Positions 7,473 to 55,867 of a stretch of 64,000 nucleotides of DNA are shown in pieces (the stretch's first letter is position 1; every line of letters starts with the position of its first letter). Under the pieces are notes generated by a model. It had not been told where the DNA came from and ran no database searches. It saw only the letters and a program-made list of their open reading frames with translations. The position numbers and the translations under genes are program-made. The DNA is from a virus (taxonomy: Duplodnaviria; Caudoviricetes): IMG/VR virus record IMGVR_UViG_3300025732_000016. One strand, written 5' to 3'.

Positions 7473-7856
7473 TCAGTAACCGTTTTTTAGACGCTCTAAG
7501 ATCTTTTCGTGCTTTTTGCGGTAAGCATCGTGAAGCTCATCGGGACTGATTCCAATCAGCACCAGAGTCGTCAAGAAGTAATTGTAAGCGTCGACAATCT
7601 CCTCGAGGAACTCCTCCCTCTCAAAATGAGCCACCTCAGTCTGTCGATGGGGCTTCGAGTTCTTCAGGTGCTGAAGAGCTTCGAACATCTCCTCGACTCC
7701 TCGAAGGACGGAATCGCGAAGGATGACCTGGCTCTGCTTCTTGGAAACGTCTATCGGCCAGTCAGGATAATAGCCCGGCATCTTCTCTGAGATTGCCTGC
7801 ATGAACTCTTCACGCAGGCGAAAGATCTCTGTCAGCCTGTCATCAGTTGACGTCAT
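7473..7856 (-). CDS. All-alpha (dimeric dUTPase/MazG-like) NTP pyrophosphatase
   Basis: EEMFEALQHLK...FLEEIVDAYNYF acidic metal-binding helices; start moved to ATG 7856 (MTSTDDRL). Confidence 0.7.
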   Translation of the reverse strand: MTSTDDRLTEIFRLREEFMQAISEKMPGYYPDWPIDVSKKQSQVILRDSVLRGVEEMFEALQHLKNSKPHRQTEVAHFEREEFLEEIVDAYNYFLTTLVLIGISPDELHDAYRKKHEKILERLKNGY

Positions 7857-8067
7857 TCTGGAGATCCAGAGCCTTCTGCGCAAGGTCATCGAGATTCTTC
7901 TGGAAGTTCTCGTTGAACTCGGAAGTGGGGGTGAGCTCCTCTCCCTGGGCTTCAAGACGCAGAGTGCGAAGATTGTCAACGACGTCCGTGCCCGTCAGGA
8001 TGGCGAGCTGGACGAGCTTTGCGATGGAAGAAATGGTCTCATCAGAGAGTCTGTACTGCATATTCAC
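7843..8067 (-). CDS. Hypothetical protein (74 aa)
   Basis: Overlaps both neighbours in the operon pattern; GGAG SD. Confidence 0.7.
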   Translation of the reverse strand: MNMQYRLSDETISSIAKLVQLAILTGTDVVDNLRTLRLEAQGEELTPTSEFNENFQKNLDDLAQKALDLQNDVN

Positions 8068-8798
8068 TCCTTTGGCTTCTTGAAGAAGAGGTCTACTCGA
8101 GGACGGTCCTTCGTGAGAGCGTGCTCCCTATTGATCGTCCTGCCCGTATTGATCGTAGCCACGTAGCCACGATCAATGAAAAAGTCCCAGATATCAACAG
8201 AAGTGACTCCGCAACGAGACAGGTTCTCGTCCTGAGCCTCAATTTGAAAGACTGGGTTGTGCTTGTCGATGAGATTCTTCATTCCGTGGAGGGCTCTGAG
8301 TTCAAATCCCTCGACGTCCATCTTCACGAAGTCAACACTTCCCTCACCAATGTCAACATCATCGATGGCGACAATCGTGATCTCGTGTGAGACTTTTGTC
8401 GGAACGGCGGTCACAAAGGACCTTCCCTCGTTGCCCCTGATGAGATTGATGAAAGCCTTCGCGGGACCTGATCCGACCCCCAACTGTTCGAGCCTCACAT
8501 TCTTGATGTTGTTCTGGTCAACGTTCTGCTTGAGGACCTCGAAGGTCGCGGGATTGGGCTCAAATGAGATGATTCGATTCGCCCAACCGGTGTAGTAGAG
8601 CATCTCCTGACCGATGTTCGCACCGATGTCTAGAACGACGTCGGGCTTCTGGACGATCTTCTGTGCGTATGCCCAGTTGCGCTTCTCCCACGCGTTCTTT
8701 CCGTTTTCATACGCCTTCACCCACAGCTTGTTCTCTGTGAAGAAGGTTACGATCTTGCCGTCAAACTGCTTGACAGTTTGCGTGGGTTTCACAAACAT
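8064..8798 (-). CDS. FkbM-family SAM-dependent methyltransferase
   Basis: VVLDIGANIG, ISFEPNP, DFVKMDVEGFE motifs. Confidence 0.9.
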   Translation of the reverse strand: MFVKPTQTVKQFDGKIVTFFTENKLWVKAYENGKNAWEKRNWAYAQKIVQKPDVVLDIGANIGQEMLYYTGWANRIISFEPNPATFEVLKQNVDQNNIKNVRLEQLGVGSGPAKAFINLIRGNEGRSFVTAVPTKVSHEITIVAIDDVDIGEGSVDFVKMDVEGFELRALHGMKNLIDKHNPVFQIEAQDENLSRCGVTSVDIWDFFIDRGYVATINTGRTINREHALTKDRPRVDLFFKKPKE

Positions 8799-8815
8799 TT
8801 TGCTCCTTGCAAAAT

Positions 8816-8844
8816 AGTGTAATGAGCCGAGGAGAGTTGTTTAA
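8816..8844 (-). promoter_or_regulatory. sigma70-type promoter TTAAAC-N17-TACACT
   Basis: In the intergenic gap upstream of the 8798 start and its AAGGAG SD. Confidence 0.55.
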
Positions 8845-9632
8845 CTCTGAACTCGCGGAACCCACCACGTTGTGCGACCGTCCTTGGTCTCCTGGCACAC
8901 CACAGTCTCGCCGTTGGGGTCCGTCTTTCGGCCATAGACAAGCATAGAGTGTTTCCCTTCCTCACCGTCGAACCCCTTGTAGGTGAGGATGGTGGAGCCA
9001 CCGTTGAGGTACGCCGTCTTGATGACATCCTTCACGGATTCACAGAGAATTGTGAGCTGCTCATCTGTCGTCTGGTTCACCTTTCGCCATGGGCTGAGTT
9101 TCGCCATCCAGAGAGAGTCCGCCTTCAGGTAGTTTCCGACTCCTGAGACGATTCCCTGACTCATGAGGACTTCAGCCAGGGTCGCTTCAGGATGCTTTCG
9201 AAGCCTCTCGATGAAAGTGGCAGGCTTCACTATCTCGTTGAGCATGTCGGGGCCGAGTGAATCAAGCTTCACCTTCAAGTCCTTGCGGCTGCAGAACTTT
9301 AGGGTGCCGAAGTTTCGCGGATCATTGAAGTACAGTTCACCCTCGGATGTCTCGAACTTCACCCTTGCGTGACGAGGGGCGTTTGACCATGCACCTGACA
9401 TCCCGAGAGTGTTGAAGATGACTGTTTCAGTGTCCTGGAAGGTCCAGTAGATGAACTTGCCCTTGCAACCCACACTCTCGATTGTGAGAGGAAACTGGAC
9501 GTTGGCGAGTCCCTCGATGGGCTTCTTCGTGTAGCGACCTGATAGTGGCGTAACTGAGAGAAGCCTGTCACCCTCACCGAGGAAGCTGTTGATGGAGCGG
9601 ACAAAGTTTGCGACTTCGGGACCCTCGGGCAC
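8841..9632 (-). CDS. nei: Fpg/Nei-family DNA glycosylase/AP lyase, zincless-finger (NEIL1-like) type
   Basis: N-terminal PEGPEV, KGKF catalytic Lys, FNDPRNFG, H2TH SGVGNYLKADSLW, C-terminal GRTTWWVP without four Cys. Confidence 0.9.
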   Translation of the reverse strand: MPEGPEVANFVRSINSFLGEGDRLLSVTPLSGRYTKKPIEGLANVQFPLTIESVGCKGKFIYWTFQDTETVIFNTLGMSGAWSNAPRHARVKFETSEGELYFNDPRNFGTLKFCSRKDLKVKLDSLGPDMLNEIVKPATFIERLRKHPEATLAEVLMSQGIVSGVGNYLKADSLWMAKLSPWRKVNQTTDEQLTILCESVKDVIKTAYLNGGSTILTYKGFDGEEGKHSMLVYGRKTDPNGETVVCQETKDGRTTWWVPRVQS

Positions 9633-9641
9633 AACGCCTCC

Positions 9642-9911
9642 TTAGAATCGATCACAGGTTTGCAGGCTTCCGTTGACTCGGAACTGGTACTTCGACTTTG
9701 CACTCTCTGCGGTGTAGATGACCCACACTGGGCCCGTTCCCTCCCACACCTCGGTGGTTCCGACAAAGCCCGTCCTGCGGAGGTCTCCCTGGTGGTGGGC
9801 AGAGAAATTTCCCACCGCTGAGATGTAGTGGGGCTCATCACCCCAGAATTGACAGGTACCGATGAGAGTGTCAGCGAAAGAAAAGTTGAGCAAGAGATAG
9901 AGCGGTAGCAC
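9642..9911 (-). CDS. Hypothetical protein, possible signal peptide (89 aa)
   Basis: GTG at 9911 after GAGGAAGAG; C-ending codon bias; hydrophobic start MLPLYLLLNFSFA. Confidence 0.5.
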   Translation of the reverse strand: MLPLYLLLNFSFADTLIGTCQFWGDEPHYISAVGNFSAHHQGDLRRTGFVGTTEVWEGTGPVWVIYTAESAKSKYQFRVNGSLQTCDRF

Positions 9912-9924
9912 GTCTTCTCTTCCT

Positions 9925-10134
9925 CTAGCTCGAATGCCACTTTCGAGCGTTGAAAGATCCCATGAGAGCGGGTCGTTCATCGTGAGGTGTCCTGTTGACC
10001 TCAGCGAGCATATTCTCAATGTTGGCCAGCGCGGTGATCTCCCAATCACGAGGCGTCGACCCTGCCTCGCTGTCACAACGCTCACGTGCAAGCCGAAGAG
10101 CCGTATGAACTGCTGCAAGCTCGATATTGGTCAT
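9925..10134 (-). CDS. Hypothetical protein (69 aa)
   Basis: ATG preceded by AAGGAGG SD. Confidence 0.65.
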   Translation of the reverse strand: MTNIELAAVHTALRLARERCDSEAGSTPRDWEITALANIENMLAEVNRTPHDERPALMGSFNARKWHSS

Positions 10135-10208
10135 TCCAGCCTCCTTGTTCTTTTTAATTCATCGGATGAACAGAGAACACAATTTTGTGAAACTTTTGTG
10201 TCTTCCCG

Positions 10209-10661
10209 TCAACAGGTGAAGTTGTGGTTGGCAGACGGATGTTCTGACTCGCCGTAGTGCTTCTTCAGGAAGTCGTGGTAGTCATTGAGAGCGTGGTCCT
10301 GCGGCTGGACGCTGCGCCAGTCACCGAGGACGAAGATTCGGTACGCGTCCGAGGCATACTTCCCAACTCCGTGAAGCTGGAGGACGTCATTCCACTTGCC
10401 CTCGTGATACTGGGCCGACATCTTCTTCAGAGTATTGACGCGCTTCTTCCACATGCCAAGAGTTCGGATGACATCCGTGAGCTCTGCGTCATCAGCTTCT
10501 GACAGAGACTTTGCATCAGGCCATCGCTGGAACATCCTTTCAACAACTGGTTCCATCTGCTTCCTCGTAGTGAGGTTGAGACAGAGGCAGCAGACAAGGA
10601 TCTTCCAGGGATCAGGCCAGTACTTCTCTTGGATTAGTCCGTACTTTGGGGGAGTCCACAA
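10209..10661 (-). CDS. MBD4-like HhH-GPD mismatch DNA glycosylase
   Basis: WTPP...LIQE...DPWKIL...LHGVGKYASDAYRIF...W..V.PQDHALNDY closely parallels the MBD4 catalytic domain including the catalytic Asp; GGAGG SD. Confidence 0.85.
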   Translation of the reverse strand: MWTPPKYGLIQEKYWPDPWKILVCCLCLNLTTRKQMEPVVERMFQRWPDAKSLSEADDAELTDVIRTLGMWKKRVNTLKKMSAQYHEGKWNDVLQLHGVGKYASDAYRIFVLGDWRSVQPQDHALNDYHDFLKKHYGESEHPSANHNFTC

Positions 10662-10680
10662 GCTTCACCTCCGTATCAAG

Positions 10681-10708
10681 ATAATACATCCTGACGGAGA
10701 CTTTACAA
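10681..10708 (-). promoter_or_regulatory. sigma70-type promoter TTGTAA-N16-TATTAT (TG-extended)
   Basis: Intergenic, upstream of the MBD4-like gene. Confidence 0.45.
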
Positions 10709-10727
10709 ACTTGTGGACTCCCTTTGA

Positions 10728-11528
10728 CTACTTCACTGGGAGAGCGAGGAGAGCAGCCCAGATAGACTCATCGCCTGCAGTAATCTTCGCTTTCACGACA
10801 GCCTCTGCGAGCCCAAGGGCTAGACAAAGTGCGGCAATGCTCTTGGGACCGAGAGCACCGTCGATCTTGCCAATATCGAATCCAGCACGACAAAGAAGGG
10901 CCTGTGTGACCGCGGGGAAACCCTGGAGATCGCCGTGACCAACGAGGAGAGCGCCGCAGAGTGCGGCCTGCTCATAGCCGAGCCGGTTGAGAACGCCAGT
11001 GAGCTCGCCCCAGAAGTCAAAGTGCCAGGCTTCCTTCGCTCCCTCGTCCGCAGTCTTGATGATCGGCTTCCAGCCAAGAGGAATTGCGAGGTCCCAGAGC
11101 TTGTCAAGCTGCTTATCTGCAGGGACACCCGGGAACTTGAGCTCTGAGAGGTGAACGTCGATGCTTCTGCCTGCATTGTGACCGGAGCGACCCGGAAGAG
11201 CCACGAAAGCGTTCTTCATGGTGGCGGCGTTCCAGGTTGCAGATCCGGGCGACGGCTTGCCAGCCTTTACCCAGTTGTCATACTTTGTCCTTGCAGCCTG
11301 TTGGACTGCAACATCTCTGTGGCACTCAGTGATTCGGAGATCACCACCTGCAGCAGCAACTGCATCAGAGAGTGCCTTGAGAGCCGGTGCCATCTCGGGG
11401 TGGGCAATTCCTGCCTTACCCAGCTTGGCAAGGGGCGTGAGATTTGCTCTGGGACCACCTGTCCCACCTGACTTGTTGTATGACGATGCGATCGAGAGAT
11501 CAACTGGAACGAGCTTAACTGGCGGCAT
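10728..11528 (-). CDS. Endolysin: M15-family Zn peptidase with C-terminal peptidoglycan-binding domain
   Basis: HR..., PGRSGHNAGRSIDV (SxH-x6-D), EAWHFDF; tail QALLCRAGFDIGKIDGALGPKS (PG_binding_1-like). Confidence 0.8.
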   Translation of the reverse strand: MPPVKLVPVDLSIASSYNKSGGTGGPRANLTPLAKLGKAGIAHPEMAPALKALSDAVAAAGGDLRITECHRDVAVQQAARTKYDNWVKAGKPSPGSATWNAATMKNAFVALPGRSGHNAGRSIDVHLSELKFPGVPADKQLDKLWDLAIPLGWKPIIKTADEGAKEAWHFDFWGELTGVLNRLGYEQAALCGALLVGHGDLQGFPAVTQALLCRAGFDIGKIDGALGPKSIAALCLALGLAEAVVKAKITAGDESIWAALLALPVK

Positions 11529-11565
11529 GCTGTTATCCTTTACGGGCTGTTTACCCGTCCATCGA

Positions 11566-11572
11566 TAACTAT
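11566..11572 (-). promoter_or_regulatory. Putative late promoter ATAGTTA
   Basis: 37 nt before the endolysin ATG; leader contains hairpin ACGGG/CCCGT. Confidence 0.55.
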
Positions 11573-11579
11573 ACTGCAG

Positions 11580-12248
11580 TCAGTAAGGTGGGTGGAAAGT
11601 TTCCTCGACTCTGTCAGCGAGACCGAACGCCTCGATCGTGTGCTTGAACGGATTTGTTGGGATGCCGGCAACGAGCTGGAGCATCTGCTCTGCGATCTCT
11701 CTCACTTCCCTCTGAGCGTCACTCTTCATCCGCAGGTTGAGAAAGTGATTGAAGGAACGCCAGTTGAACATGACGTCCATCGTCACCTGGTTGCCATAGG
11801 GCAGATAGAATCGGGCAGACTCCTTGGCTCGCTTTCGATCCATCCCGTCCTTCACAAGACGCTCAAGGGTATCATGGTAGCGCATTATCGCGTCTTCCAT
11901 GAATGCGATATACTTCGCTTTCTCGACAGTGGGCCAGTCATCCGGCACCACGTACTTGTCGTCCTTGAGCTCCTTGTAACGAGCAGACTCTGCATTGATT
12001 GAGACGCCTATGCGATGCTTGAGGAGATGAATGTGAGTCGCAGTGTCCACTGTCACGAGGAAGTGAATCGAGCTCTTCTCAAACGGCGTCTCGTGCCCGT
12101 TCTCCGCGAGCATCTTCAAAAGCTCTGGAACTCTCTTTCTCTTCTCTGGGCTGATGTCCCTGCTCGTGCTCGTCCAAGCCGAAAGTGCGTGAGCCTCGTC
12201 TCCACCGTACCAACCAATGAGCTCTACCTTGTTCTCTTGAAAGGGCAT
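11580..12248 (-). CDS. thyX: Flavin-dependent thymidylate synthase
   Basis: GHETPFE, KHRIGVSINAESARY, FLNLR...AQREVR; start moved to ATG 12248 (MPFQENKV). Confidence 0.92.
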   Translation of the reverse strand: MPFQENKVELIGWYGGDEAHALSAWTSTSRDISPEKRKRVPELLKMLAENGHETPFEKSSIHFLVTVDTATHIHLLKHRIGVSINAESARYKELKDDKYVVPDDWPTVEKAKYIAFMEDAIMRYHDTLERLVKDGMDRKRAKESARFYLPYGNQVTMDVMFNWRSFNHFLNLRMKSDAQREVREIAEQMLQLVAGIPTNPFKHTIEAFGLADRVEETFHPPY

Positions 12249-12453
12249 TCCTAATTCTCTCTCTAATGTGTCTGTCCCAAATGATCTCAAACACCCACTG
12301 AAGGAGGGTGAGTGTTGAGCCCGTCAGAAAGACTATTCCTGCGGACTCTCCCACGCTGTGGGTGAAGATGTAGGTTATCGTGAATCCGTAGAGCATGGAA
12401 AAGAATCTCCATGCTACAACTTTTGTCAGCAGCTCTATCTTTGCTGGCTTCAC
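12079..12453 (-). CDS. DUF2061-like small membrane protein (C-terminal tail overlaps thyX)
   Basis: TKVVAWRFF...two TM segments...EIIWDR pattern; ATGA coupling to the GS stop. Confidence 0.55.
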   Translation of the reverse strand: MKPAKIELLTKVVAWRFFSMLYGFTITYIFTHSVGESAGIVFLTGSTLTLLQWVFEIIWDRHIRERIRNALSREQGRAHWLVRWRRGSRTFGLDEHEQGHQPREEKESSRAFEDARGERARDAV

Positions 12454-13484
12454 TCCACCCCGCAGACCGCCTCAAGAAGCAGACGGGTCACGACGTATGG
12501 ATCAACGTTAGCGCACGGTCGACGATCCTCGAGGTATCCACAGCCCTCTTGCGCCACATGGAGAGGTATCCGAATAGAGGCTCCTCTGTCACTCACACCG
12601 TATCGGAACTCTCTGTAGGAGCATGTCTCGTGGTGACCCGTGAGACGAAGCTCAATACCGTGGCCGTAGTGAGCAATGTGATGCTCGTGACGAACGCGAA
12701 GCAGCTCGCAAGCTTCCTTGATAGCATAGATTCCCTCAGGTTCACGCATACGCTTTGTTGAGAAATTGGTGTGGGCTCCTGCACCGTTAAGCTCTGCGAC
12801 TGGCTTGGGATCAAGCTTCACAGTGATCCCGTGCTTCTCGCCGATTCGGTAGAGAAGCCAACGTGCAAAGATGAGGTGGTCAGAGACAGTGAGAGCGTCA
12901 GCAGTTCCGATCTGGAACTCCCACTGGCCAGGCATCACCTCGGCGTTGATACCGCAAAGGGCGATGCGGGAGTCGAGACATGCTGCCATGTGCTCCTCGA
13001 CAAGCTCCCGACCGAAGACCTCATCGGATCCAACACCGCAGTAGAAAGGACCCTGCTGGGGAGGGTAGCCACCCGTGGGCCAACCGAGGGGCCGACCGTC
13101 CTTGAACATCGTGTACTCCTGCTCGATACCGAACAGGGGCTCGTGGTCAAGGGTCTTCTCAACAACTTCACGAAGCTTGCTGCGAGTGTTTGACTCGTGG
13201 GGCTTCATGTCCGCGGTGAAGACCTCGCAGATGACGAGAATGTGGACTCTCTCGTGATTCTTCTCTCGAGTGGGATCAAGAGTAAATCTTGCGGGAATCA
13301 GAAGACAGTCACTTCTGTCACCAGAAGCCTGTCCGGTGGAAGAGCCATCAAAGGTCCACCGAGGAATGTCCTCTATTCCGAAAGGCTTGTTTGCATCGCT
13401 GTATTGCAGGATTTTTGTCTTGCTTCGAAGTTTGTGGGTCGGATGGCTTCCGTCCTGCCAGATGTACTCGGCTACGATATTCAT
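12450..13484 (-). CDS. glnII: Glutamine synthetase type II
   Basis: AEYIW, WTFDGSSTGQA, QGPFYCGVG, NAEVMPGQWEFQIG, NGAGAHTNFST, RLTGHHET, RGASIRIP, YLEDRRP. Confidence 0.95.
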   Translation of the reverse strand: MNIVAEYIWQDGSHPTHKLRSKTKILQYSDANKPFGIEDIPRWTFDGSSTGQASGDRSDCLLIPARFTLDPTREKNHERVHILVICEVFTADMKPHESNTRSKLREVVEKTLDHEPLFGIEQEYTMFKDGRPLGWPTGGYPPQQGPFYCGVGSDEVFGRELVEEHMAACLDSRIALCGINAEVMPGQWEFQIGTADALTVSDHLIFARWLLYRIGEKHGITVKLDPKPVAELNGAGAHTNFSTKRMREPEGIYAIKEACELLRVRHEHHIAHYGHGIELRLTGHHETCSYREFRYGVSDRGASIRIPLHVAQEGCGYLEDRRPCANVDPYVVTRLLLEAVCGVE

Positions 13485-13486
13485 GC

Positions 13487-14089
13487 TTAGTCCAAGATGT
13501 AATCGAGGTTGATCTTACAAGTGAGAGTCGGGATTCGAAGCTCGTTGGCGAGGTTGTGACCCTTCGCCTCATTTGCATCGAGGTACCAATCTGCGTGACC
13601 CCTCTCGTGGACCATCTTCAGGAAATAGTCCGATGGCTTGCCGCAGTTGCGAGCCATCATCTCGTAGACCTTCTTGTTGAGGCGCTCGACTTCCTTCGCG
13701 TCGGCCTTGATCTCCTCGACCTTGCCCCATGCGCCGCTGGAGACGTCGTGGATCATGAGGGTCGCGTCCGGGTCCATGTAACGCTTCCCCTCAGCTCCGA
13801 AGCTGAAGAGGATCGCTCCGCAGCTCATTGCCTTGCCCTCGATGATGGTGGCCACCGGAACTCGGGAGGCCTTGATCGCCGAGATCATTGCCATGAGGGA
13901 GTAGACCTGACCGCCGTAGGAGTCGATGACGATGGGGATCACCGACTGGCCCGTGTTCTGTGCCATGCTCATCTGGGAGGTAAACTCCTTCGCCGAATCC
14001 TCGTCGAACTTGTTCACTCGGATGATGATCGGATCGACCTTGAGCTCGACTGCCTTGATGTGATTAGAAACGTCTGCGATGAAGTTCAC
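13487..14089 (-). CDS. clpP: ClpP-like serine protease
   Basis: IDSYGGQVY, AMSCG (Ser), MIHDV (His), DWYLDANEA (Asp); start moved to GTG 14089 (MNFIADV). Confidence 0.88.
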   Translation of the reverse strand: MNFIADVSNHIKAVELKVDPIIIRVNKFDEDSAKEFTSQMSMAQNTGQSVIPIVIDSYGGQVYSLMAMISAIKASRVPVATIIEGKAMSCGAILFSFGAEGKRYMDPDATLMIHDVSSGAWGKVEEIKADAKEVERLNKKVYEMMARNCGKPSDYFLKMVHERGHADWYLDANEAKGHNLANELRIPTLTCKINLDYILD

Positions 14090-14141
14090 TGCGTACCCCG
14101 GTTGTGTTAGGTTGCGAATAGCCTGTTCGATTTCGTCTTCT

Positions 14142-16631
14142 TCACTTGCACTTGGAGAAGCCACACGCCTTGCAAGAGAGGCACCCCTCTTGATAGACGA
14201 GCTCTGAGTTACCACACTCAGGGCACCCCTTTTCGCTTGACTTTGTACCATCCTTGATGTACCCCTTGAGAACTCTTGCGATTACTCTTGCGTATGAGAA
14301 CATGTCACTGTTCTTGTCCTTCTGTAGTTGTTCCACGATGTACTGGAGTGGGACATCGTGACGGAGAGCCAGTGATATAGTCCTCGTGAACGCTCCTTGA
14401 GTCGGATTGTCGAAGAGGTTGACAACGTCCTTGAAGACGAGATTCTCATCGTCACCGACCGGGACAGAGAGGTTGTATGTGGCAACACCATCACGCTTAC
14501 CATTTTTAATCAAGGAACCTGATTTGTATCGCTTCGGGATCTCGATATTCTCAGGAATGCCGCAGAAGACTTCGTAGGGCTTGCCATCGTTGAGACCTAT
14601 GAGGACCATCCACGACTCAGTGTTCTCACCGTTCCTGATGTTGGCCCGGTGAATGTCGCAGTGAAGAGACTTCGGCCTCCTGGGAGTGAGTCTCCCATCC
14701 TCTGACTTCTTCTCCTTCTTGGGCTCATCATTCTGCACCAGAACGCCTGTCCTACATCCGTCACGGTAGACTGTGAAACCCTTACAACCGAACTTCCACG
14801 CCTTCATATAGACGTCATTCACAATCTCACGTGTAGCAGAGTTCGGGAGGTTGCAAGTTTTAGAGATGGAGTGATCGATCCACTGCTGAGCCGCAGCCTG
14901 GATGTCGACCGACTTTTCCCAATCGATGTCGTTCGCAGTTGCTCCCCAGTATGGGCTCTCCTTTGGGTCGGTCTTTCCCGTACGATCCATCCACTTCTTG
15001 AACCAGTGGTGGTAGACCGTGTACTCCTGCCACTTGTCACCCATCGGATCCACAAAGTCGACCCTTGACGTGAGATCTCCCTGCGTGATCTTACGACGAC
15101 GCTTGTATGAGAGCAGGAATGCAGGTTCGATACCCGATGTCGTCCTGGTAAGACAGGAGACTGAGCCAACCGGCGCCGTAGTCGTTAGGGCAATGTTGCG
15201 GCGGCCAGTGGTCTTCCACATATTATAGCTGTCACCATTGCAGGCTGACATCACCCTGCACAGGTAGAGATGGTCCTTCTCCTTCTCATAGTCGAAGGCT
15301 GGGAAAGCGCCGCGCTCCTTCGCCATGATGAGTGAAGAACGGTGAGCTCCGATTGCGAGAGCTCTGTAGATCTCACGAGTAGCGTCGATCGAACAACCGT
15401 CACCGTAGCGAATGTTCATTGCTGCAAGAGCGTCACCGAGTCCAGTGACGCCGAGACCCGTCCGTCGACCATTCTTACCAGCCGCGCGGATCTTGTGCCA
15501 GAGATCCCATTCAATCCGCTTCACGTGATCTGGCTGCGGGTCCTTCTCGATCTTCTCGAGGATTCGATCCACGCACTCAATCTCAAGATCGACAAGGTCG
15601 TCCATGAGACGCTGGGCCTTCATCACCACAGTGTTGAATCGATTGAAGTCAAACGTAGGACTGTCGCCGAAAGGATCGGTTACAAAGGACGTGAGATTAA
15701 TGACCATCAAACGACACGAGTCATAAGGACTGAGAGGAATCTCACCGCATGGATTGGTAGAGATCGTCTTGTAACCGACGTCACGATAGCAGTCAACGAT
15801 TCCTTGGTTGACGATGGTGTCCCAGAAGAGAGCGCCAGGCTCCGCGGAAGCCCAGGCTGCATCAACGAACTTATCCCAGATCTGCTTCGCGTCGACCATC
15901 TTGACGATCTCTGCGTCCTCGGGATGAGCCTCAACCGGCCAGCGAAGGCAGAAACCGGTGTTGCCCTCGACCGCCTGCATGAACTCGTCCGTGAAACGGA
16001 TAGAGATATTCGCGCCCGTCACCTTCTTCAGGTCACGCTTGATGTCAATGAATGTCTCGATCTCCGGGTGGCGACAGTCAATCGTGAGCATCAGAGCGCC
16101 ACGTCGGCCGCCCTGCGCCACCTCGCGTGTAGAGTTAGAGAATCTCTCCATGAAGACACCGATGCCATCAGTCGTCCGAGCAGCATTCGTGGTGGGCTGA
16201 CCCTTTGGGCGAATGGTGGAGACATCGAATCCGACTCCGCCGCGGCGCTTCATGATCTGGACCTGCTCCTGGTCAGTGAAGAGAATGCCACCGTAAGAGT
16301 CCTGTGGCTGCTCAATAACGAAGCAGTTTGACAGGCTCTGCAGTTGGTAGTAATTCCCGATGCCCGACATCGGAGAACCCTGTGGGATGACGTCCTTGAA
16401 GTCCTTCAGGAGCTCGTAGATCTCGTCTTCGCTCATCGGGTTCGGATACTTTGCCTCAATACGGGCAAACTCCTTCGCGAGTCGACGATGCATCTGGTCC
16501 GGATTGGTCTCGATTAGGTCGTCGTCTGCGTCGCGAAGCGCATACTTCATGAAGACGTCTGGAGCGAGCTCATCACCCTCGAAGTAAGCGGATGTCTCCC
16601 TAAGTGCAGTTTGCCTCGTTGTCTCGTTCAT
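14142..16631 (-). CDS. nrdJ: Class II (adenosylcobalamin-dependent) ribonucleotide reductase
   Basis: SLSNCF, QGGRRGALM, STNPCGEIPL, TAPVGS...TTSGIEP, DHSISKT, YRDG, C-terminal CPEC..C..C Zn ribbon; start ATG 16631 overlapping the helicase TAA. Confidence 0.9.
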   Translation of the reverse strand: MNETTRQTALRETSAYFEGDELAPDVFMKYALRDADDDLIETNPDQMHRRLAKEFARIEAKYPNPMSEDEIYELLKDFKDVIPQGSPMSGIGNYYQLQSLSNCFVIEQPQDSYGGILFTDQEQVQIMKRRGGVGFDVSTIRPKGQPTTNAARTTDGIGVFMERFSNSTREVAQGGRRGALMLTIDCRHPEIETFIDIKRDLKKVTGANISIRFTDEFMQAVEGNTGFCLRWPVEAHPEDAEIVKMVDAKQIWDKFVDAAWASAEPGALFWDTIVNQGIVDCYRDVGYKTISTNPCGEIPLSPYDSCRLMVINLTSFVTDPFGDSPTFDFNRFNTVVMKAQRLMDDLVDLEIECVDRILEKIEKDPQPDHVKRIEWDLWHKIRAAGKNGRRTGLGVTGLGDALAAMNIRYGDGCSIDATREIYRALAIGAHRSSLIMAKERGAFPAFDYEKEKDHLYLCRVMSACNGDSYNMWKTTGRRNIALTTTAPVGSVSCLTRTTSGIEPAFLLSYKRRRKITQGDLTSRVDFVDPMGDKWQEYTVYHHWFKKWMDRTGKTDPKESPYWGATANDIDWEKSVDIQAAAQQWIDHSISKTCNLPNSATREIVNDVYMKAWKFGCKGFTVYRDGCRTGVLVQNDEPKKEKKSEDGRLTPRRPKSLHCDIHRANIRNGENTESWMVLIGLNDGKPYEVFCGIPENIEIPKRYKSGSLIKNGKRDGVATYNLSVPVGDDENLVFKDVVNLFDNPTQGAFTRTISLALRHDVPLQYIVEQLQKDKNSDMFSYARVIARVLKGYIKDGTKSSEKGCPECGNSELVYQEGCLSCKACGFSKCK

Positions 16632-18016
16632 TACTTCGCTCCCATCACCTGGGTCCACTTTTCCTTGATCAGCTTCTTCCGGTCGTTGTCATCTTGGTTC
16701 AACGCTTCCTGAAGAGTAAGTTCGCTCTCTTCCAAGATCTTGATTGTGGATCGCGCTGTGTCAATGTGAACTGGGAAGAGAATTCCGTCCCGACCCGCTC
16801 GATTCTTAGCCACGAAGAGTCGGCCAGCTCCGGTCGCCTTCTCGGTCGGCTTTCGAGAGAGTGAGAGAACCACATCGGCGACCATCGCCTTTCCGTAAGA
16901 TTCTGACATATTCTCGAGACCGACAACATCTGCGTTCGACGAATCCCTGTTCGCCTGAGAGGCAGTCCAGATCGGAATGTTCCTCTCCATCGCAAGGTTG
17001 CGAAGCTCCTCGTAGATGAGCTTCAGCTCAAGGCGGAGGGCATCATACTCACGGCTCGAACGCATGATGTCTGCATAGTCGATGAGCAGCATGCTGGGAG
17101 TGAAGCCACGGAGCGAGAGCTTCTCAAGGTGATTGCGGATCGTGTTCACCGTCGCTGCGCCTGTCGGGTATTCCTTGATGATGAGCTTTCCGAGATCCAT
17201 CTCCTTGTACTTGTCAAGGACCTCCTGCTTCGAGTCCTGGATTTCGTTGGAAGCAATACCAGTCAAGTGAGAGTCGTACCTGATTCCGACCGCGGTCTCT
17301 GTGAGCTCAAAGGTGTAGTGGACGACGTTCTTGCCGAGCTTGAGAGCCTGCGCGCCGAGTCCAACCAGCATGTGGCTCTTGCCGACGCCAGTGTTCGCCA
17401 CAATGACACCGAGCTCACCTCGACCGAGTCCACCGTTGAGAACGGTCTTCTGGTCGAGCTGCTCGAGACCAGTCGGGCAAGCGAGACGATTGATCTTCAC
17501 AAAGCGGGCCTCTGCATCCTCGAAGAAGTCATGACCGACAGAAGTGGGTAGACCGACGGAAACCGCCTTGCGCATGAGATCGACAACGGCATCGTACTTG
17601 TCACCTGAGATGAGCTCAACGGACTTCTCAAGCGCCTCACGAAGTGCCTGCTTTCTGCAGAAGTCGAGTGACTTGTCCTTCACATAGGCAATGTCGCCCA
17701 TGTCGGGAGAAGTCCGCATGCGACCGAGGTACTCAACGATCTGTTCCTTGAGGACAGCGTTGTTCTGCTCCTTTAGCTCGTCCTTGATGATCGAGATGAG
17801 GAGAGACATCGTCGGGAAAGCCTTGTACTTCGTGTGGTACTTGAAGTACTTGTCGCTGAGAAACGCGAGGTACTTGAGATCGAAGTAGACAGGCTTCATC
17901 ACCTCGGTCATCTGTGCTGCCCACGTGTGGTCAGTCAAGAGACCTTGGAAGATTTTCTCTTGGAAAGCCTTCCCGTATTGCTTGAACAGGGCTTCACCCG
18001 GATTGAACTCAGACAT
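16631..18016 (-). CDS. dnaB: Replicative DnaB/gp41-like helicase
   Basis: Walker A ANTGVGKS, LLIDYAD, IWTASQANR, KNRAG. Confidence 0.92.
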   Translation of the reverse strand: MSEFNPGEALFKQYGKAFQEKIFQGLLTDHTWAAQMTEVMKPVYFDLKYLAFLSDKYFKYHTKYKAFPTMSLLISIIKDELKEQNNAVLKEQIVEYLGRMRTSPDMGDIAYVKDKSLDFCRKQALREALEKSVELISGDKYDAVVDLMRKAVSVGLPTSVGHDFFEDAEARFVKINRLACPTGLEQLDQKTVLNGGLGRGELGVIVANTGVGKSHMLVGLGAQALKLGKNVVHYTFELTETAVGIRYDSHLTGIASNEIQDSKQEVLDKYKEMDLGKLIIKEYPTGAATVNTIRNHLEKLSLRGFTPSMLLIDYADIMRSSREYDALRLELKLIYEELRNLAMERNIPIWTASQANRDSSNADVVGLENMSESYGKAMVADVVLSLSRKPTEKATGAGRLFVAKNRAGRDGILFPVHIDTARSTIKILEESELTLQEALNQDDNDRKKLIKEKWTQVMGAK

Positions 18017-18983
18017 TCTGCTTTGCCGCCTTGAGGTTTACTGTTGCGTTGAGATAGAGTCGATCGACGTCGAATGTCTTGATCCCAGCCTTGATTAAGG
18101 AACGTATGAGCTCAATCTTGTTCCCTTCGGGAAGGGAGTTTTCGACTGCACCGTTCACTTTCGAGACTTGGTTCCAGCTGAGGTTCGAGACATCCAACTT
18201 CATCAATTTCCAGTTCATTCTACCCAGGTCTGCGCTGTTTTTCACCTGTGCGTAAACCTTGGGAGACTTGTCGGGCATGGAGCTCGCCTTCTCGATTATC
18301 TGTTCGAGCTTTACCTCTTCGTCCCCAGCGAGCTCTGGGAAACGCTTGACCATCGTCCTCAAACCGAGACCTTTCACTCCCGGCAGTGCGTCTGATGTGT
18401 CGCCACAGAAACAGCGGGCGACGAGAAGGTTGTGCGGCCATATCCCGGTCTTCTCCTTGACAGACTCTCTCGTCACAATCGATCTCAGTGTAGGAGACCA
18501 TATCGTGATCCGATCGTCCACCAGCTGTAAGTAATCATGATCTGAGGAGACGATCAGCACCCGTGATCGTGAGTATGAGTATTTTGCGAGGTAGCCGATG
18601 ACGTCATCCGCCTCGCAGTCAGAGACGTAGACCTGCCTGACCGGGAGGTTCCTCATGACGTGGATGAGCAGTTTCACCTGCCAGTTCCTGTTCTCGAGAG
18701 TGTCTGGAATGTCACCCTCGTGGAACCTGTTGAGCTTTACGGGACGACGCTTTGCCTTGTAGTCAGGATAGATGTCCCGCCTCCGGGTCGAACCTCCACC
18801 CTCCCAGACGACGACGCACTCCTTCGGCCTGTGAGCAGCTATGAGAGAATTCAGTGACTGTAGGAACCCCACAACTCCGCCCACGTGCTGTCCATCCGCC
18901 ATCAGCGGGTTAGCGCAGAAATTGCGAATGAACAGGTTGTAGGCGTCGATGAGTAGGACTGGGCGTTCGTCCTGCATTTTCAT
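18009..18983 (-). CDS. 5'-3' exonuclease/flap endonuclease (T4 RNase H-like)
   Basis: LLIDAYN, YKAKR, CEADDVI, SSDHDYLQL, GDTSDALPGVKGLG. Confidence 0.92.
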   Translation of the reverse strand: MKMQDERPVLLIDAYNLFIRNFCANPLMADGQHVGGVVGFLQSLNSLIAAHRPKECVVVWEGGGSTRRRDIYPDYKAKRRPVKLNRFHEGDIPDTLENRNWQVKLLIHVMRNLPVRQVYVSDCEADDVIGYLAKYSYSRSRVLIVSSDHDYLQLVDDRITIWSPTLRSIVTRESVKEKTGIWPHNLLVARCFCGDTSDALPGVKGLGLRTMVKRFPELAGDEEVKLEQIIEKASSMPDKSPKVYAQVKNSADLGRMNWKLMKLDVSNLSWNQVSKVNGAVENSLPEGNKIELIRSLIKAGIKTFDVDRLYLNATVNLKAAKQNV

Positions 18984-21610: not shown

Positions 21611-22201
21611 TTAAGTATTATGCCCCTTGAGAATCCACTGGCGTGCCTGGGTGAGAAGTACACTAATGTCCGGCTCAGAGCCGATGTAGAACCTATTCTC
21701 CTCCCTCGAGGGACCCGTCGAGGTCGCAATTGCCACCCACTCGTCCATTGAGAGGCACACACCGAAGTGCTGTAGCACGTGGAGGGACCTGTGAGCGATC
21801 GGCATCTTCGGGAGATGCTCATTGTAGCGGTAGAGCCGGCCCTGCTTTCGATGCCAATCAGAGTCCTGCTCAACGAGATAGTCCTCACCCTCGAGGGGTC
21901 CGCCCACCATGCCGATGTTGTGGAAGAGCCCCACGAGGATGAGGGACTCCGTTGGGACCTGGATTTCCAGGGCTTTCGCGATGGAACGCATCTTCATGGT
22001 GACGCCGATCGACTGGTCAATGAGTCCGCCCGGTCGGCTCCAGGGCTGTCCCTCGTTGAGAGAGCCTGGGCACATGAGAAGCCTCTCACCGAGAGACTCT
22101 ACCATCTCCTTTACTTGTGAAGATCTCCCCTCACCTGCAGAGTGAGAGAGCTTGCAGAACTTTTCGTATCGGGCCTGGAGCTGAGTGAGTTGATCTTCCA
22201 T
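21611..22201 (-). CDS. HD-domain-like protein with degenerate catalytic motifs
   Basis: PGGLIDQS (usually xHS), LFHNIGMVG (usually HDxGK), QDSDWHR, MPIAHRSLHVLQHFG. Confidence 0.7.
   Translation of the reverse strand: MEDQLTQLQARYEKFCKLSHSAGEGRSSQVKEMVESLGERLLMCPGSLNEGQPWSRPGGLIDQSIGVTMKMRSIAKALEIQVPTESLILVGLFHNIGMVGGPLEGEDYLVEQDSDWHRKQGRLYRYNEHLPKMPIAHRSLHVLQHFGVCLSMDEWVAIATSTGPSREENRFYIGSEPDISVLLTQARQWILKGHNT
21612..21618 (-). promoter_or_regulatory. Putative late promoter ATACTTA (leaderless)
   Basis: 4 nt before ATG 21607, no SD. Confidence 0.55.
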
Positions 22202-22737: not shown

Positions 22738-22744
22738 TAACTAT
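22738..22744 (-). promoter_or_regulatory. Putative late promoter ATAGTTA (leaderless)
   Basis: 5 nt before ATG 22732. Confidence 0.55.
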
Positions 22745-23868
22745 TCCGTGAACTCCAGTCCATTCAGAGAAACGGGAAACCTTCCGTAAGGGGAAACCTT
22801 TATTCCCTCAGATGCGATCTCTGAGATTATCCCAGTGTTCTCAGAGGGAACGTCAATGAACATCGCGTCGTGGACGAGGAAAAGCGGGTCAGCGAAACCG
22901 CTGAGGCGCTGCGCAAGATCACTGAACCCGAGGAGGCAGACGTCCACTGCAGTTGACTGCACCCAGTGAGGTATTAGCAGACGCTCCTCTTCGACCTGAA
23001 GCGGCCTACCGTAGCCGTTGCGACCTTGACAGTCCTCAATCTTTCTGCGCAACTCGTTCACGTTGAAGAAATCTCGGACGTGTCGCTTGAGCCTGTCGCC
23101 GACTCCGTCCGTCGCGGCAGCGCCATACAAGAAAGAGAGAGTCGCTATCTTTGTCTTTGCCCGAGACTCGCCTGACAGCCTCGACATCTCGTCATAAACG
23201 TCACCAGCAGACTTCTTGCCCACTGCGAAGAGAGCGAGACGGGGCTCAAGAGAGACAAAGTCAATGCTCAGAATTTTCCCACCAGGATACCTTGACGTGA
23301 GAACATTCCTGTGCTGCTTTGACATGGTGAGGACGCGGGGACCAGACTCAACCCTCAACCGACCCGTCTTTGTACCGTGTGTGTACCGTACCCTTTCGCA
23401 CTCATTGCCAGATGGTGGAATGAAGGACTCGAGAGGCTCACCAGAATCGACAAGAGACCTCACTCTCACTGGATCAACCCTGATCGGTTGGAGGTTCTCA
23501 AATATCCTGCGACCCCTGATGAGGACTTCTGCGTAACCCGTAGACTCCATTTCCTCAACAATCTCGAGCACATCGGATCGATATCTCTTCAACTCTGCAG
23601 CGAGACCCCTCGCTCCAAGCGCGAGGTTCCAATCGATCTCGTTGCTACCAAGATATTTCTCGTAAGCAGCTCGCATCTCTTTTGAGACTAGCTGTGGGAG
23701 CTCAAGCGAGAAACCCGTGACAAGGTCCTCGAGTGAGGTCGAGGCCGGAGAAGTCGACCCGACTAAGTAAGAGCCCTCTGGGGGACTCTTGAGGGTCTGC
23801 AGACGTTCCCTGATTGAGATTGTCTTTCCCGAACCTGTCACTTGCGGAAGTAAAGTTATTTCTCTCAC
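22741..23868 (-). CDS. Minimal family A DNA polymerase (polymerase core only)
   Basis: TKTGRL, motif A DFVSLEPR, motif B RAKTKIATLSFLYG, VQSTAVDV, motif C LVHDA; only 375 aa. Confidence 0.8.
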   Translation of the reverse strand: MREITLLPQVTGSGKTISIRERLQTLKSPPEGSYLVGSTSPASTSLEDLVTGFSLELPQLVSKEMRAAYEKYLGSNEIDWNLALGARGLAAELKRYRSDVLEIVEEMESTGYAEVLIRGRRIFENLQPIRVDPVRVRSLVDSGEPLESFIPPSGNECERVRYTHGTKTGRLRVESGPRVLTMSKQHRNVLTSRYPGGKILSIDFVSLEPRLALFAVGKKSAGDVYDEMSRLSGESRAKTKIATLSFLYGAAATDGVGDRLKRHVRDFFNVNELRRKIEDCQGRNGYGRPLQVEEERLLIPHWVQSTAVDVCLLGFSDLAQRLSGFADPLFLVHDAMFIDVPSENTGIISEIASEGIKVSPYGRFPVSLNGLEFTE

Positions 23869-42161: not shown

Positions 42162-42168
42162 TAAGTAT
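42162..42168 (-). promoter_or_regulatory. Putative late promoter ATACTTA
   Basis: 20 nt before sheath-2 ATG, overlapping the sheath-1 stop. Confidence 0.55.
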
Positions 42169-55414: not shown

Positions 55415-55867
55415 TCACCTACGTGAGGTGTTTCTAGATTCTGAGAATGCCATCATTGCCCAGTTCTCAGCCCCCTCGAACAGATTGGGATCGACGCCAG
55501 TGTCCATGAGGGGGTTAGCTTGAGAATTGCTGCCACCGTCGGGGGAGCCGAGCCTTTCAACCAGTCCGCTCGCAGCAGTATCGGCGAAAACTGATGCTAG
55601 CACATCATTTCCGCCAACGAGCTCCTTGTAATTAGCAGCGCTTGGTCGTGGTCGATCCGGTTGTCTTTGTGTTGGGACAGGAGAGCTTGCAGGAGCCCTA
55701 CCCTTCGGGTGGATGAGGTCGAGAGCAGGACGGGTTGCAACAGGCCTCGTCGACTGCTTGGTAGTGTTCCTTTCCCTCACATTCTCGACAACTCTTTTTG
55801 GAGAGCCCTCAACGATAATCTCGAGCAGGCACTCCTTGACGAGCTCTTTCAAATCATCTCTTGTCAT
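55415..55867 (-). CDS. Hypothetical protein with capsid-targeting-like N-terminus
   Basis: Start ATG 55867: MTRDDLKELVKECLLEIIVE-G. Confidence 0.7.
   Translation of the reverse strand: MTRDDLKELVKECLLEIIVEGSPKRVVENVRERNTTKQSTRPVATRPALDLIHPKGRAPASSPVPTQRQPDRPRPSAANYKELVGGNDVLASVFADTAASGLVERLGSPDGGSNSQANPLMDTGVDPNLFEGAENWAMMAFSESRNTSRR

Follow-up and report, generated by a model that had tools for sequence, protein, structure and literature searches.

Across a large clade of T4-like jumbo phages from aquatic habitats, an MBD4-type DNA glycosylase (MBD4L), a Nei-type glycosylase and an all-alpha NTP pyrophosphohydrolase (NTP-PPase) are encoded by a conserved, co-directional and usually adjacent gene trio, and the recognition of this trio is new here. 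On balance, we favour the view that the three genes form a "pyrimidine hygiene" module that guards DNA with probably modified cytosine against uracil-like and oxidised bases.

The locus analysed lies in a 64,000-nucleotide stretch of DNA (the window) from an uncultured freshwater giant phage (Table 1). The original prediction had named a dUTPase-like enzyme, a Nei glycosylase, an MBD4-like glycosylase and ThyX, and all four were located on the minus strand, at or close to the positions it assigned to them. Its list lacked three interleaved genes, namely the FkbM methyltransferase, the 9642-10118 ORF and the VanY-type peptidase, the last of which is unrelated to DNA repair; GlnII is also interspersed in the window. 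The sigma-70-like promoter match precedes the MBD4L start by 20 nt, and no terminator-like sites were found within 7473-12290.

Table 1 Features of the window with their supporting matches
Feature	Position	Strand	Match or remark
All-alpha NTP pyrophosphohydrolase (NTP-PPase; dimeric-dUTPase / MazG / DCTPP1 superfamily)	7473..7856	-	phrog_12184 5e-14; third trio gene
FkbM-family methyltransferase	8064..8798	-	PF05050 2e-20, TIGR01444 1.6e-26
Nei/NEIL1-type bifunctional DNA glycosylase/AP lyase, zincless finger	8841..9632	-	three Pfam domains; second trio gene
ORF without family match, 112 aa (158 aa from upstream TTG, 9642-10118)	9642..9980	-
MBD4-type monofunctional mismatch glycosylase (MBD4L), stand-alone catalytic domain	10209..10661	-	human MBD4 match; first trio gene
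Sigma-70-like promoter match	10681..10708	-	TTGTAA-16-TATTAT, 9/12, consensus match only
VanY-type peptidase, endolysin-like	10728..11528	-	PF02557 1.5e-8; phrog_2649 endolysin 1.8e-5
ThyX, flavin-dependent thymidylate synthase	11580..12248 (ORF to 12290)	-	PF02511 1.6e-36; TIGR02170
ClpP-like protease	13487-14251	-	PF00574 3.5e-28
Ribonucleotide reductase (RNR) large subunit	14142-16658	-	PF02867 2.8e-87
Flap endonuclease	18009-18983		E 7e-34
HD-like ORF (originally "phosphoesterase")	21611-22201		sub-threshold
PolA-like ORF	22741-23868		PF00476 E 0.0014, phrog_17 6e-13

Conservation and neighbourhood of the trio

Gene neighbourhoods were surveyed within 10 kb of the best 80 MBD4L loci and the best 80 Nei loci in IMG/VR, two sets that share contigs. 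Nei accompanies MBD4L in 30/80 and NTP-PPase in 24/80 of the MBD4L loci, usually on the same strand at +412 bp and +1450 bp from MBD4L, respectively, and with MBD4L identity as low as 41%; in most relatives MBD4L abuts Nei, at about 412 bp start to start. The Nei loci contain MBD4L in 45/80 and NTP-PPase in 50/80 cases. When Nei was grouped into 17 clusters at 60% identity, 10 had MBD4L immediately upstream, 11 had NTP-PPase immediately downstream, and 8 had both neighbours. The original prediction depended on the genes co-occurring in relatives, and the three are indeed adjacent and co-directional in many distant ones, which supports its grouping of the dUTPase-like enzyme with both glycosylases.

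In the window the trio is broken by two insertions, the ORF at 9642-9980 between MBD4L and Nei and the FkbM methyltransferase between Nei and NTP-PPase. The methyltransferase was not matched by tblastn in the closest relatives (L003-L005), in which NTP-PPase comes directly after Nei, and it is an insertion outside the conserved trio. The ORF is unmatched in Pfam, PHROG, NCBIfam and Atlas; it is 93% identical in L003 and L004 and only partial in L005. ThyX, originally counted within the repair cluster, occurs near the trio in 11/80 MBD4L and 26/80 Nei loci and proves to be a variable upstream neighbour, not a repair component. RNR (33/80 MBD4L and 52/80 Nei loci) and ClpP (28/80 and 56/80), always upstream on the same strand, serve as a conserved anchor for the block on that side. 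As all trio loci fall in one broad lineage sharing RNR and ClpP, inherited synteny accounts for part of the adjacency.

Synteny could be taken further, the three being independent accessory genes in a slowly rearranging stretch between replication genes (RNR, DnaB, FEN, UvsX, gp32) and structural genes. The RNR and ClpP order is kept over the same range of relatives, VanY, FkbM, GlnII and the unmatched ORF are interspersed in the window, and every trio member is absent from some relatives. We nevertheless consider this reading quite improbable, as MBD4L, Nei and NTP-PPase directly abut at 40-50% protein identity while surrounding genes come and go, both adjacencies recur in deep Nei clusters, and all three enzymes are predicted to target pyrimidines in DNA or dNTPs.

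Family features and predicted activities

MBD4L is an HhH-GPD protein that aligns along its entire length with the glycosylase domain of human and mouse MBD4 (residues 2-136; E 1.5e-33). It shares with the mammalian MBD4/MED1 catalytic domain (PDB 4DK9, 3IHO, 4E9E, 1NGN) the HhH motif, the absence of an Fe-S cluster, and equivalents of the catalytic Asp D560 and of Q449 and Y540, which recognise the flipped base (human numbering; roles from PMC3479182). These residues are invariant or near-invariant across the phage family, and the 447-449 backbone of the base-recognition pocket is also conserved, which predicts U, T or 5hmU rather than C as the substrate. In contrast to the mammalian enzyme, the phage-encoded protein lacks a methyl-CpG-binding domain, its DNA-intercalating loop has the sequence LNLTTR where human MBD4 has LNRTSG (R468 to Leu, G471 to Arg), and Ala takes the place of K562, both changes being family-wide. 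Because the loop and K562 differ, specificity may differ from that of human MBD4. MBD4L is almost absent from prokaryotic genomes, with 10 MAG loci among 185,579 species in a search by a single motif pattern of limited sensitivity.

Nei carries the Pfam Fapy_DNA_glyco, H2TH and C-terminal domains, and its best solved match is Mimivirus Nei1 (3a45, E 1.9e-33). All of 22 phage homologues compared have residues P2, E3, K59 and R253, the last two corresponding to MvNei1 K60 and R277 (PMC7139703). With Mimivirus Nei1 (MvNei1, L315) and human NEIL1 it shares the (M)PEGPEV N-terminus, the K60-equivalent Lys, the H2TH motif and a zincless finger that bears the R277-equivalent Arg and a single Cys. It differs in being shorter than MvNei1 by about 25 residues, the gaps falling between its H2TH motif and finger, and in being encoded by a bacteriophage and fixed beside an MBD4-type glycosylase. 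Its substrates are putative, and its catalytic residues read as the canonical repair set.

Comparison with relatives places the NTP-PPase start at the ATG at 7856, giving 127 aa (the ORF was called as 7473-7979). Its Pfam dUTPase_2 match (E 5e-4) is under the cut-off, and the metal motif EExxE...EExxD is invariant in 22 homologues. The AF2 model is an all-alpha protein of four helices (pLDDT 92) whose top fold neighbours, all weak (E >0.3), are phage dimeric dUTPases, YpjD, DCTPP1 and DR2231, with dUTPases and dCTPases equally close. The enzyme is a candidate dUTP/dCTP pyrophosphatase, and the uracil avoidance originally ascribed to it is one possible job, a dCTPase role like that of T4 gp56 fitting equally well. 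ThyX scores 113 bits against TIGR02170 (equivalog cut-off 87.9) and keeps the dUMP-binding Arg equivalents (Tm R90, R147, R174), with R78 and H53 replaced by Lys.

The proposal of a largely self-contained base-excision repair pathway finds no support. Searches of five large relatives (45-87% complete) found no ExoIII- or EndoIV-type AP endonuclease, PNK3P phosphatase, NAD ligase or PolX, and an ATP ligase in just one; the window, as originally stated, has no AP endonuclease or ligase among its ORFs of at least 100 aa. Among the repair genes reported elsewhere in the window, the flap endonuclease is confirmed, the minimal PolA is a weak match and the phosphoesterase amounts at most to an HD-like ORF below threshold. 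The latter two lie about 10 kb from the repair genes.

Herpes- and poxviruses pair dUTPase with UNG, and Mimivirus and ASFV carry base-excision repair sets. The phage trio likewise combines pool sanitation with base excision in a large DNA virus, but it has MBD4-type and Nei enzymes instead of UNG, a bacterial host, and relatives in which viral AP endonuclease and PolX were not found and ligase in one only.

T4 nucleases destroy cytosine-containing DNA. By analogy, the glycosylases could be weapons that excise bases from unmodified host or rival-phage DNA, which the Nei lyase would then cut, for nucleotide recycling or rival exclusion. Anti-phage attack on modified DNA is a known role of host HhH and UDG-family glycosylases (PMC11078745; bioRxiv 10.1101/2025.10.29.685425), the loop and K562 changes in MBD4L are family-wide, and a lineage without its own AP endonuclease and mostly without ligase would suit cutting over mending. 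We regard such a role as very improbable, since the conserved pocket predicts substrates other than C, the Nei catalytic set is that of repair enzymes, and a normal genome would not be degradable by excision limited to G-mismatched bases.

Probable association with cytosine modification

At the position of E. coli N177, every thymidylate synthase (TS)-family hit within 10 kb of MBD4L (12/12) or Nei (20/20) has Asp, which marks the cytosine-reading type, and no canonical ThyA was found among these 32 hits from overlapping sets of loci. Close relatives (G001, L013-L015, G006-G008, G011) encode a MilA-like TS (E 1e-41) with Asp at the N177 and L143 positions, which adjoins a dNMP kinase, a GT-like gene, an NAD-epimerase and a cupin. 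In these relatives the cluster lies about 6 kb past the marker gene that ends the window at its left edge; the window itself stops short of the cytosine-modifying gene, and the relatives retrieved in a JGI scan were 89-92% identical.

Xanthomonas phage Xp12 has 5-methylcytosine in place of all cytosine. Among cultured phages, MBD4L is found in the Xp12 group, where the homologue (37% identity, E 4e-17; annotated hypothetical) is directly beside a HAD hydrolase, a dCMP methylase (TS homologue, Asp at N177), a dCMP deaminase and DHFR. Xp12 differs as a siphovirus of 64 kb, and a Nei or all-alpha NTP-PPase homologue is absent from the 18-kb locus examined. Cyanophage S-TIM54 also encodes MBD4L, and its sole TS is of the Asp type. 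Furthermore, the relatives resemble T4 in their structural genes and its pyrimidine pathway (gp56 dCTPase/dUTPase, gp42 dCMP hydroxymethylase, gp1 dNMP kinase, cd dCMP deaminase, td) in carrying an all-alpha NTP-PPase, an N177D TS homologue, a dNMP kinase, a dCMP deaminase (5/5 large relatives) and a thymidylate synthase. Unlike T4, they use ThyX instead of ThyA, a MilA-like TS homologue and a DnaE-type replicase; T4 has no MBD4- or Nei-type glycosylase, and tblastn detected no similarity between NTP-PPase and gp56.

The N177D-only TS homologues, the dCMP-modifying cluster and the Xp12 gene back the earlier suggestion of modified cytosine as the reason for the repair genes. In this lineage cytosine is very probably replaced by a C5-modified, probably sugar-decorated form, which is probably present in this very genome too. 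Were the base 5-hydroxycytosine (PMC13326640), a Nei enzyme should also attack it in the phage's own DNA wherever it is unglycosylated, which counts against our preferred explanation. The module is not strictly tied to cytosine modification, as fairly complete MBD4L-bearing contigs (G017, 87% complete; G028, 70%; G035, 68%) have no TS-family gene and C5 DNA methyltransferases are nearly absent (1/50).

Those contigs, which hold the whole or partial trio, also fit a generic dUTPase-plus-glycosylase kit that guards a very large genome in sunlit oxic water against uracil and oxidative damage, the cytosine-modification genes being merely neighbours in the same nucleotide-metabolism region. With trimeric dUTPase found in 0/5 large relatives, the role of phage dUTPase may simply fall to the all-alpha enzyme, whose actinophage homologues are annotated as dUTPase. 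We find this account unlikely given the exclusive Asp type of the nearby TS homologues, the position of the Xp12 gene within a 5mC nucleotide cluster and the specialisation of MBD4-type enzymes for G-mismatched deamination products (PMC3458566, PMC3479182).

A model for pyrimidine hygiene

In the favoured model, the module runs in the order MBD4-type glycosylase, Nei and all-alpha NTP-PPase, split in this phage by its two insertions. NTP-PPase would convert dUTP, and probably dCTP, as T4 gp56 does, to the monophosphate, keeping U and unmodified C from new DNA; ThyX would receive the dUMP, and the cytosine-modifying enzyme the dCMP. MBD4L would flip out and excise U, T or 5-hydroxymethyl-U opposite G, the bases that arise when C, 5mC and 5hmC are deaminated. 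Nei would excise oxidised pyrimidines, and its beta,delta-lyase activity would cut the abasic sites left by the monofunctional MBD4L, producing a one-nucleotide gap; end cleaning, gap filling and sealing would fall to other phage or host enzymes. What we observe directly is the family membership, the catalytic residues, the gene order with its conservation and the nearby cytosine-type TS homologues; all of these substrates, the hand-over from MBD4L to Nei and the modified cytosine of this genome are inferred. Such a module would be especially useful because the lineage very probably has C5-modified cytosine, and host repair would miss, or be misled by, what its deamination yields.

Conserved co-occurrence of MBD4L, Nei and NTP-PPase

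The region at 7473-12290 comprises seven minus-strand ORFs, and the four genes named there by the original prediction (encoding a dUTPase-like enzyme, a Nei glycosylase, an MBD4-like glycosylase and ThyX) are all present, together with three further ORFs that it had omitted. We refer to three of the products as MBD4L (stand-alone MBD4-type glycosylase), Nei (Fpg/Nei glycosylase/lyase) and NTP-PPase (all-alpha NTP pyrophosphohydrolase). Co-occurrence of the glycosylases and the dUTPase-like enzyme in relatives had been set beforehand as a test, and the three genes were found to be usually adjacent and co-directional. MBD4L homologues occur in at least 592 IMG/VR stretches, and inspection of ±10 kb around the best 80 loci revealed Nei in 30, NTP-PPase in 24, ThyX in 11, ribonucleotide reductase (RNR) in 33 and ClpP in 28. 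The usual layout, on one strand, is RNR, ClpP, (ThyX), MBD4L, Nei at +412 bp and NTP-PPase at +1450 bp, and it persists down to 41% MBD4L identity. The reciprocal search from Nei produced 497 loci, the best 80 of which contain MBD4L in 45 cases and NTP-PPase in 50, mostly directly abutting. Of 17 Nei clusters formed at 60% identity, 10 have MBD4L immediately upstream, 11 have NTP-PPase immediately downstream, and 8 have both neighbours. Four more distant loci (L006-L009) had suggested that MBD4L alone is retained at greater distance, a view overturned by these wider 80-locus sets. The trio occurs in a single broad lineage, whose members have RNR and ClpP in common too. Inherited synteny therefore accounts for some of the adjacency, yet the three genes remain abutting though their surroundings vary. 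This conserved co-occurrence in relatives is the main new result of the analysis.

Features of the window, those of the seven-ORF region first and in order of transcription
Feature	Coordinates	Strand	Order	Remarks
ThyX	11580-12290, probable Met start 12248	-	1	Pfam 1.6e-36; above TIGR02170 cut-off
VanY-type peptidase	10728-11528	-	2	
MBD4L (HhH-GPD protein)	10209-10661	-	3	
ORF without family match	9642-9980, up to 10118 in longer form	-	4	112 aa
Nei (Fpg/Nei protein)	8841-9632	-	5	
FkbM-family methyltransferase	8064-8798	-	6	
NTP-PPase	ORF 7473-7979	-	7	start 7856, not 7979, by relatives' genes
GlnII-type glutamine synthetase	12450-13484	-		
ClpP-like protease	13487-14251	-		
HD-like protein	21611-22201	-		196 aa
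PolA-like protein	22741-23868	-		375 aa
Tail-sheath paralogue	39223-42141	-		972 aa
Tail-sheath paralogue	42168-45257	-		1029 aa
T4-type prohead protease	55854-56477			

In the window itself the trio is broken by the fourth ORF of the region and by the FkbM gene. The former has no match in any profile library or Atlas and has detectable relatives only in the closest contigs, occupying the site where MBD4L normally abuts Nei. The FkbM gene is inserted between Nei and NTP-PPase and is missing in the approximately 90%-identical relatives (L003-L005); as the lineage has sugar-modification genes, its product could methylate a sugar.

Every long ORF of the window lies on the minus strand. The structural genes are those of a T4-like myovirus (gp23-type capsid protein, T4-type portal, large terminase, baseplate and tube proteins, and two sheath paralogues, which are adjacent and very long), and the replication and nucleotide genes encode gp32, a RecA/UvsX-like protein, a 5'-3' exonuclease/flap endonuclease, a DnaB-like helicase and a class I/II RNR. 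In place of a T4 gp43-type enzyme, the lineage replicase is a bacterial DnaE-type Pol III alpha with PHP, NTPase, finger and HhH domains, as seen in the related contig G001 (locus L011, 3577-7167). A ClpP-like protease, distinct from the T4-type prohead protease, is encoded directly after the RNR gene, a position kept lineage-wide (28/80 and 56/80 loci). The phage also encodes a eukaryote-like type II (GlnII-type) glutamine synthetase (478 bits against NF041605, E 1e-143, slightly below the cut-off of 500); the gene turned up in no relatives other than the closest ones (L003-L005). The window is part of a 208-kb contig. At the DNA level the region has no match among cultured phages, and a single JGI metagenome scan recovered relatives at 89-92% identity. 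CheckV completeness values of related IMG/VR contigs imply a genome of about 300-400 kb for the lineage.

Relationships of the encoded enzymes

Over its whole length MBD4L can be aligned with the glycosylase domain of human and mouse MBD4 (phmmer E 1.5e-33; residues 2-136 of the query on residues 15-151 of the 4DK9 chain), and it matches MutY and Mig only at about 1e-3. This agrees with the label "eukaryote/giant-virus-like" given to the enzymes of the cluster by the original prediction; the Pfam HhH-GPD profile scores above its cut-off. We mapped MBD4L residues on human MBD4 by alignment, taking residue roles from PMC3479182, and observed that D122, Q11 and Y102 align with the catalytic D560 and the base-recognising Q449 and Y540, respectively. 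Among 21 phage homologues D122 and Y102 never vary, and at least 90% keep Q11. The Arg468 plug of the MBD4 466-471 loop is absent, its position being taken by Leu; family-wide, the intercalating loop reads LNLTTR as against LNRTSG in human MBD4, with G471 replaced by Arg and, outside the loop, K562 by Ala. A near-invariant Arg lies three residues after the Leu, and this later Arg may functionally replace the plug.

Among solved structures Nei is most similar to Mimivirus Nei1 (MvNei1; E 1.9e-33), with bacterial Fpg at 1e-20 and E. coli Nei at 1e-6, so that the label is borne out here as well; Pfam H2TH is above its cut-off. The protein begins with (M)PEGPEV at the start codon, placing Pro then Glu at the N-terminus, in the window and in 21/21 aligned relatives, and K59, N167/Y168 (the GNY motif of the H2TH domain) and R253 are invariant in the family. 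K59 and R253 are the counterparts of MvNei1 K60 and of R277 in its zincless finger (residue roles: PMC7139703). In the window protein the last 45 residues contain one Cys and no four-Cys zinc site, and its finger is zincless, like that of MvNei1.

For NTP-PPase, the dUTPase-like call stood as regards fold and metal motif and fell short at family level, where Pfam dUTPase_2 reaches 20.8 bits (cut-off 22.9) over the C-terminal 54 residues only. A sequence search against solved structures returned no match. The metal motifs EExxE and EExxD (E55/E56/E59 and E85/E86/D89) are invariant in 22 homologues, and the AlphaFold (AF2) model is a four-helix bundle with a pLDDT of 92. Its nearest solved folds, all with E above 0.3, are staphylococcal phage dimeric dUTPases, YpjD, DCTPP1 (a dCTPase) and DR2231; all belong to one superfamily (all-alpha NTP-PPase), and the fold is equally distant from dUTPases (5MYD, DR2231) and dCTPases (DCTPP1).

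ThyX scores 113 bits against TIGR02170 (cut-off 87.9), its RHRxxSxxxxSxRY motif reads KHRIGVSINAESARY, and the arginines equivalent to R90, R147 and R174 of the T. maritima enzyme are conserved in it, with Lys at the R78 and H53 positions. From these features we read it as an ordinary dTMP synthase. A rewired, cytosine-specific ThyX is unsupported, as the protein passes the equivalog cut-off and retains the equivalents of the uracil-contacting arginines.

Association with modified cytosine

The bases 5mC and 5hmC and their sugar-decorated derivatives deaminate to T-like bases that are invisible to ordinary uracil repair. Matches to the thymidylate-synthase (TS) family lie within 10 kb at 12 MBD4L loci and 20 Nei loci (the two sets share contigs), and all carry Asp at the E. 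coli N177 position, the state that reads cytosine; a canonical TS was found within 10 kb of MBD4L or Nei at none of these 12 and 20 loci, shared contigs included. The association of TS with MBD4L rests on this all-Asp result and not on an enrichment statistic; counted over whole contigs, Asp-type TS occurs in 11 of 50, and 4 of 50 have canonical ThyA alone. Three loci (L096, L104 and L103, on contigs G041, G046 and G045) have short TS-like ORFs of 236-247 aa with the unusual motif MRSQNM..VLKLD, which accompany a canonical ThyA with a long insertion; one match crosses a stop codon. That MBD4L tracks phage C5 DNA methyltransferases was rejected, since such a gene is present in 1 of 50 contigs.

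Among cultured phages, MBD4L occurs in the Xp12 group and in cyanophage S-TIM54. All cytosine in Xp12-group DNA is replaced by 5-methylcytosine (PMC8256090), and the Xp12 MBD4L gene adjoins genes for a HAD hydrolase, a TS homologue that makes 5-methyl-dCMP (bioRxiv 10.1101/2024.12.05.627091), a dCMP deaminase and DHFR. S-TIM54 has a single TS-family gene, which likewise encodes Asp at N177; a so far unreported cytosine modification is suggested for this phage. In its record (OP053362.1; loci L002/L222) the MBD4L gene is annotated as hypothetical.

Close relatives of the window were picked by a 342-aa marker gene at its left end (84-89% identical). At a distance of approximately 6 kb past this gene they encode a DnaE-type polymerase, a GT-like protein, a dNMP kinase, a TS homologue, an NAD-epimerase/dehydratase, a cupin and a thymidine kinase. 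The nearest match of the TS homologue is MilA, a CMP hydroxymethylase (E 1e-41), and the homologue carries Asp at the N177 and L143 positions. An N177D TS together with a dNMP kinase, the combination expected for T4-type cytosine replacement, is seen in these relatives. Enzymes of the N177D type can yield 5mC, 5hmC or 5-hydroxycytosine (5hoC), and assigning the relatives' product to one of these from sequence is not possible (PMC13326640). Five large relatives encode dCMP deaminase in 5/5 cases and trimeric dUTPase in 0/5. The pyrimidine scheme of the relatives equals that of T4, but with ThyX in place of td; in such a scheme NTP-PPase could plausibly act as a dCTP/dUTP pyrophosphatase in the manner of gp56. 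By tblastn NTP-PPase has no similarity to T4 gp56; its matches are actinophage and Aeromonas phage genes.

Modified cytosine as the reason for such repair genes, put forward in the original prediction, thus finds a basis in the all-Asp TS neighbours, in Xp12 and in the gene cluster of the relatives. Against it stand the location of the TS gene outside the window, the trio in fairly complete contigs without any TS-family gene, for example G017 (87%), and the scarcity of phage C5 DNA methyltransferases.

Extent of the repair pathway and implications

A largely self-contained base-excision-repair (BER) pathway had also been proposed, and this part is not supported. No AP endonuclease or ligase was found among the window ORFs of 100 aa or more, as already noted from the sequence, and no 3'-end cleaning enzyme or convincing gap-filling polymerase was found there with the glycosylases. 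In five large relatives (45-87% complete) ExoIII, EndoIV, PNK3P phosphatase, NAD ligase and a PolX palm were all missing, and an ATP ligase is present in one of the five (G017); absence is not proven, because these records are fragments, but no finding points to a complete pathway. A Nei beta,delta-lyase would make an AP endonuclease unneeded, but would leave a 3'-phosphate for another enzyme to clear. Of the accessory genes claimed elsewhere in the window, the flap endonuclease is solid and the other two are weak: the "minimal PolA" is probably the PolA-like protein, which has the palm/fingers part only (phrog_17 6e-13, PF00476 sub-threshold), and the "phosphoesterase" is probably the ORF with a faint HD-domain signal.

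Overall, the functional grouping and the modified-cytosine rationale are retained, the self-contained pathway is not, and we consider it rather likely that the conserved MBD4L-Nei-NTP-PPase trio is a pyrimidine-hygiene module serving a genome with probably C5-modified cytosine. Such a module would be a variant of the repair and pool-sanitation kits already known from viruses.

A literature search found no description of a phage MBD4-type glycosylase. In prokaryotes (one genome per species, 185,579 species) a search with one motif pattern, of limited sensitivity, confirmed 10 MBD4L loci, all in aquatic MAGs. A far-reaching scenario, which we regard as improbable, is that MBD4-type glycosylases, essentially a phage family outside eukaryotes (at least 592 IMG/VR stretches against 10 MAG loci), arose as the deamination-repair arm of C5-modified-cytosine genomes, in a fixed MBD4L-Nei-dC/dUTPase unit for AP-endonuclease-independent repair, and that eukaryotic MBD4 and the zincless NEIL1-type Nei share ancestry with the phage module.

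Deamination in cytosine-replacing phages is a little-studied problem. A conserved module of MBD4-type mismatch glycosylase, Nei lyase and dC/dUTP-cleaving enzyme would provide a first candidate solution to it. As the Xp12 group and S-TIM54 are cultivable, the module is directly testable. It would also serve as an inexpensive sequence marker by which to spot modified-cytosine genomes in metagenomes, and as a source of small MBD4- and NEIL1-type enzymes that stand alone, of use in biochemistry and in sequencing chemistry. It further prompts the question of how the catalytic domains of eukaryotic MBD4 and NEIL1 originated.
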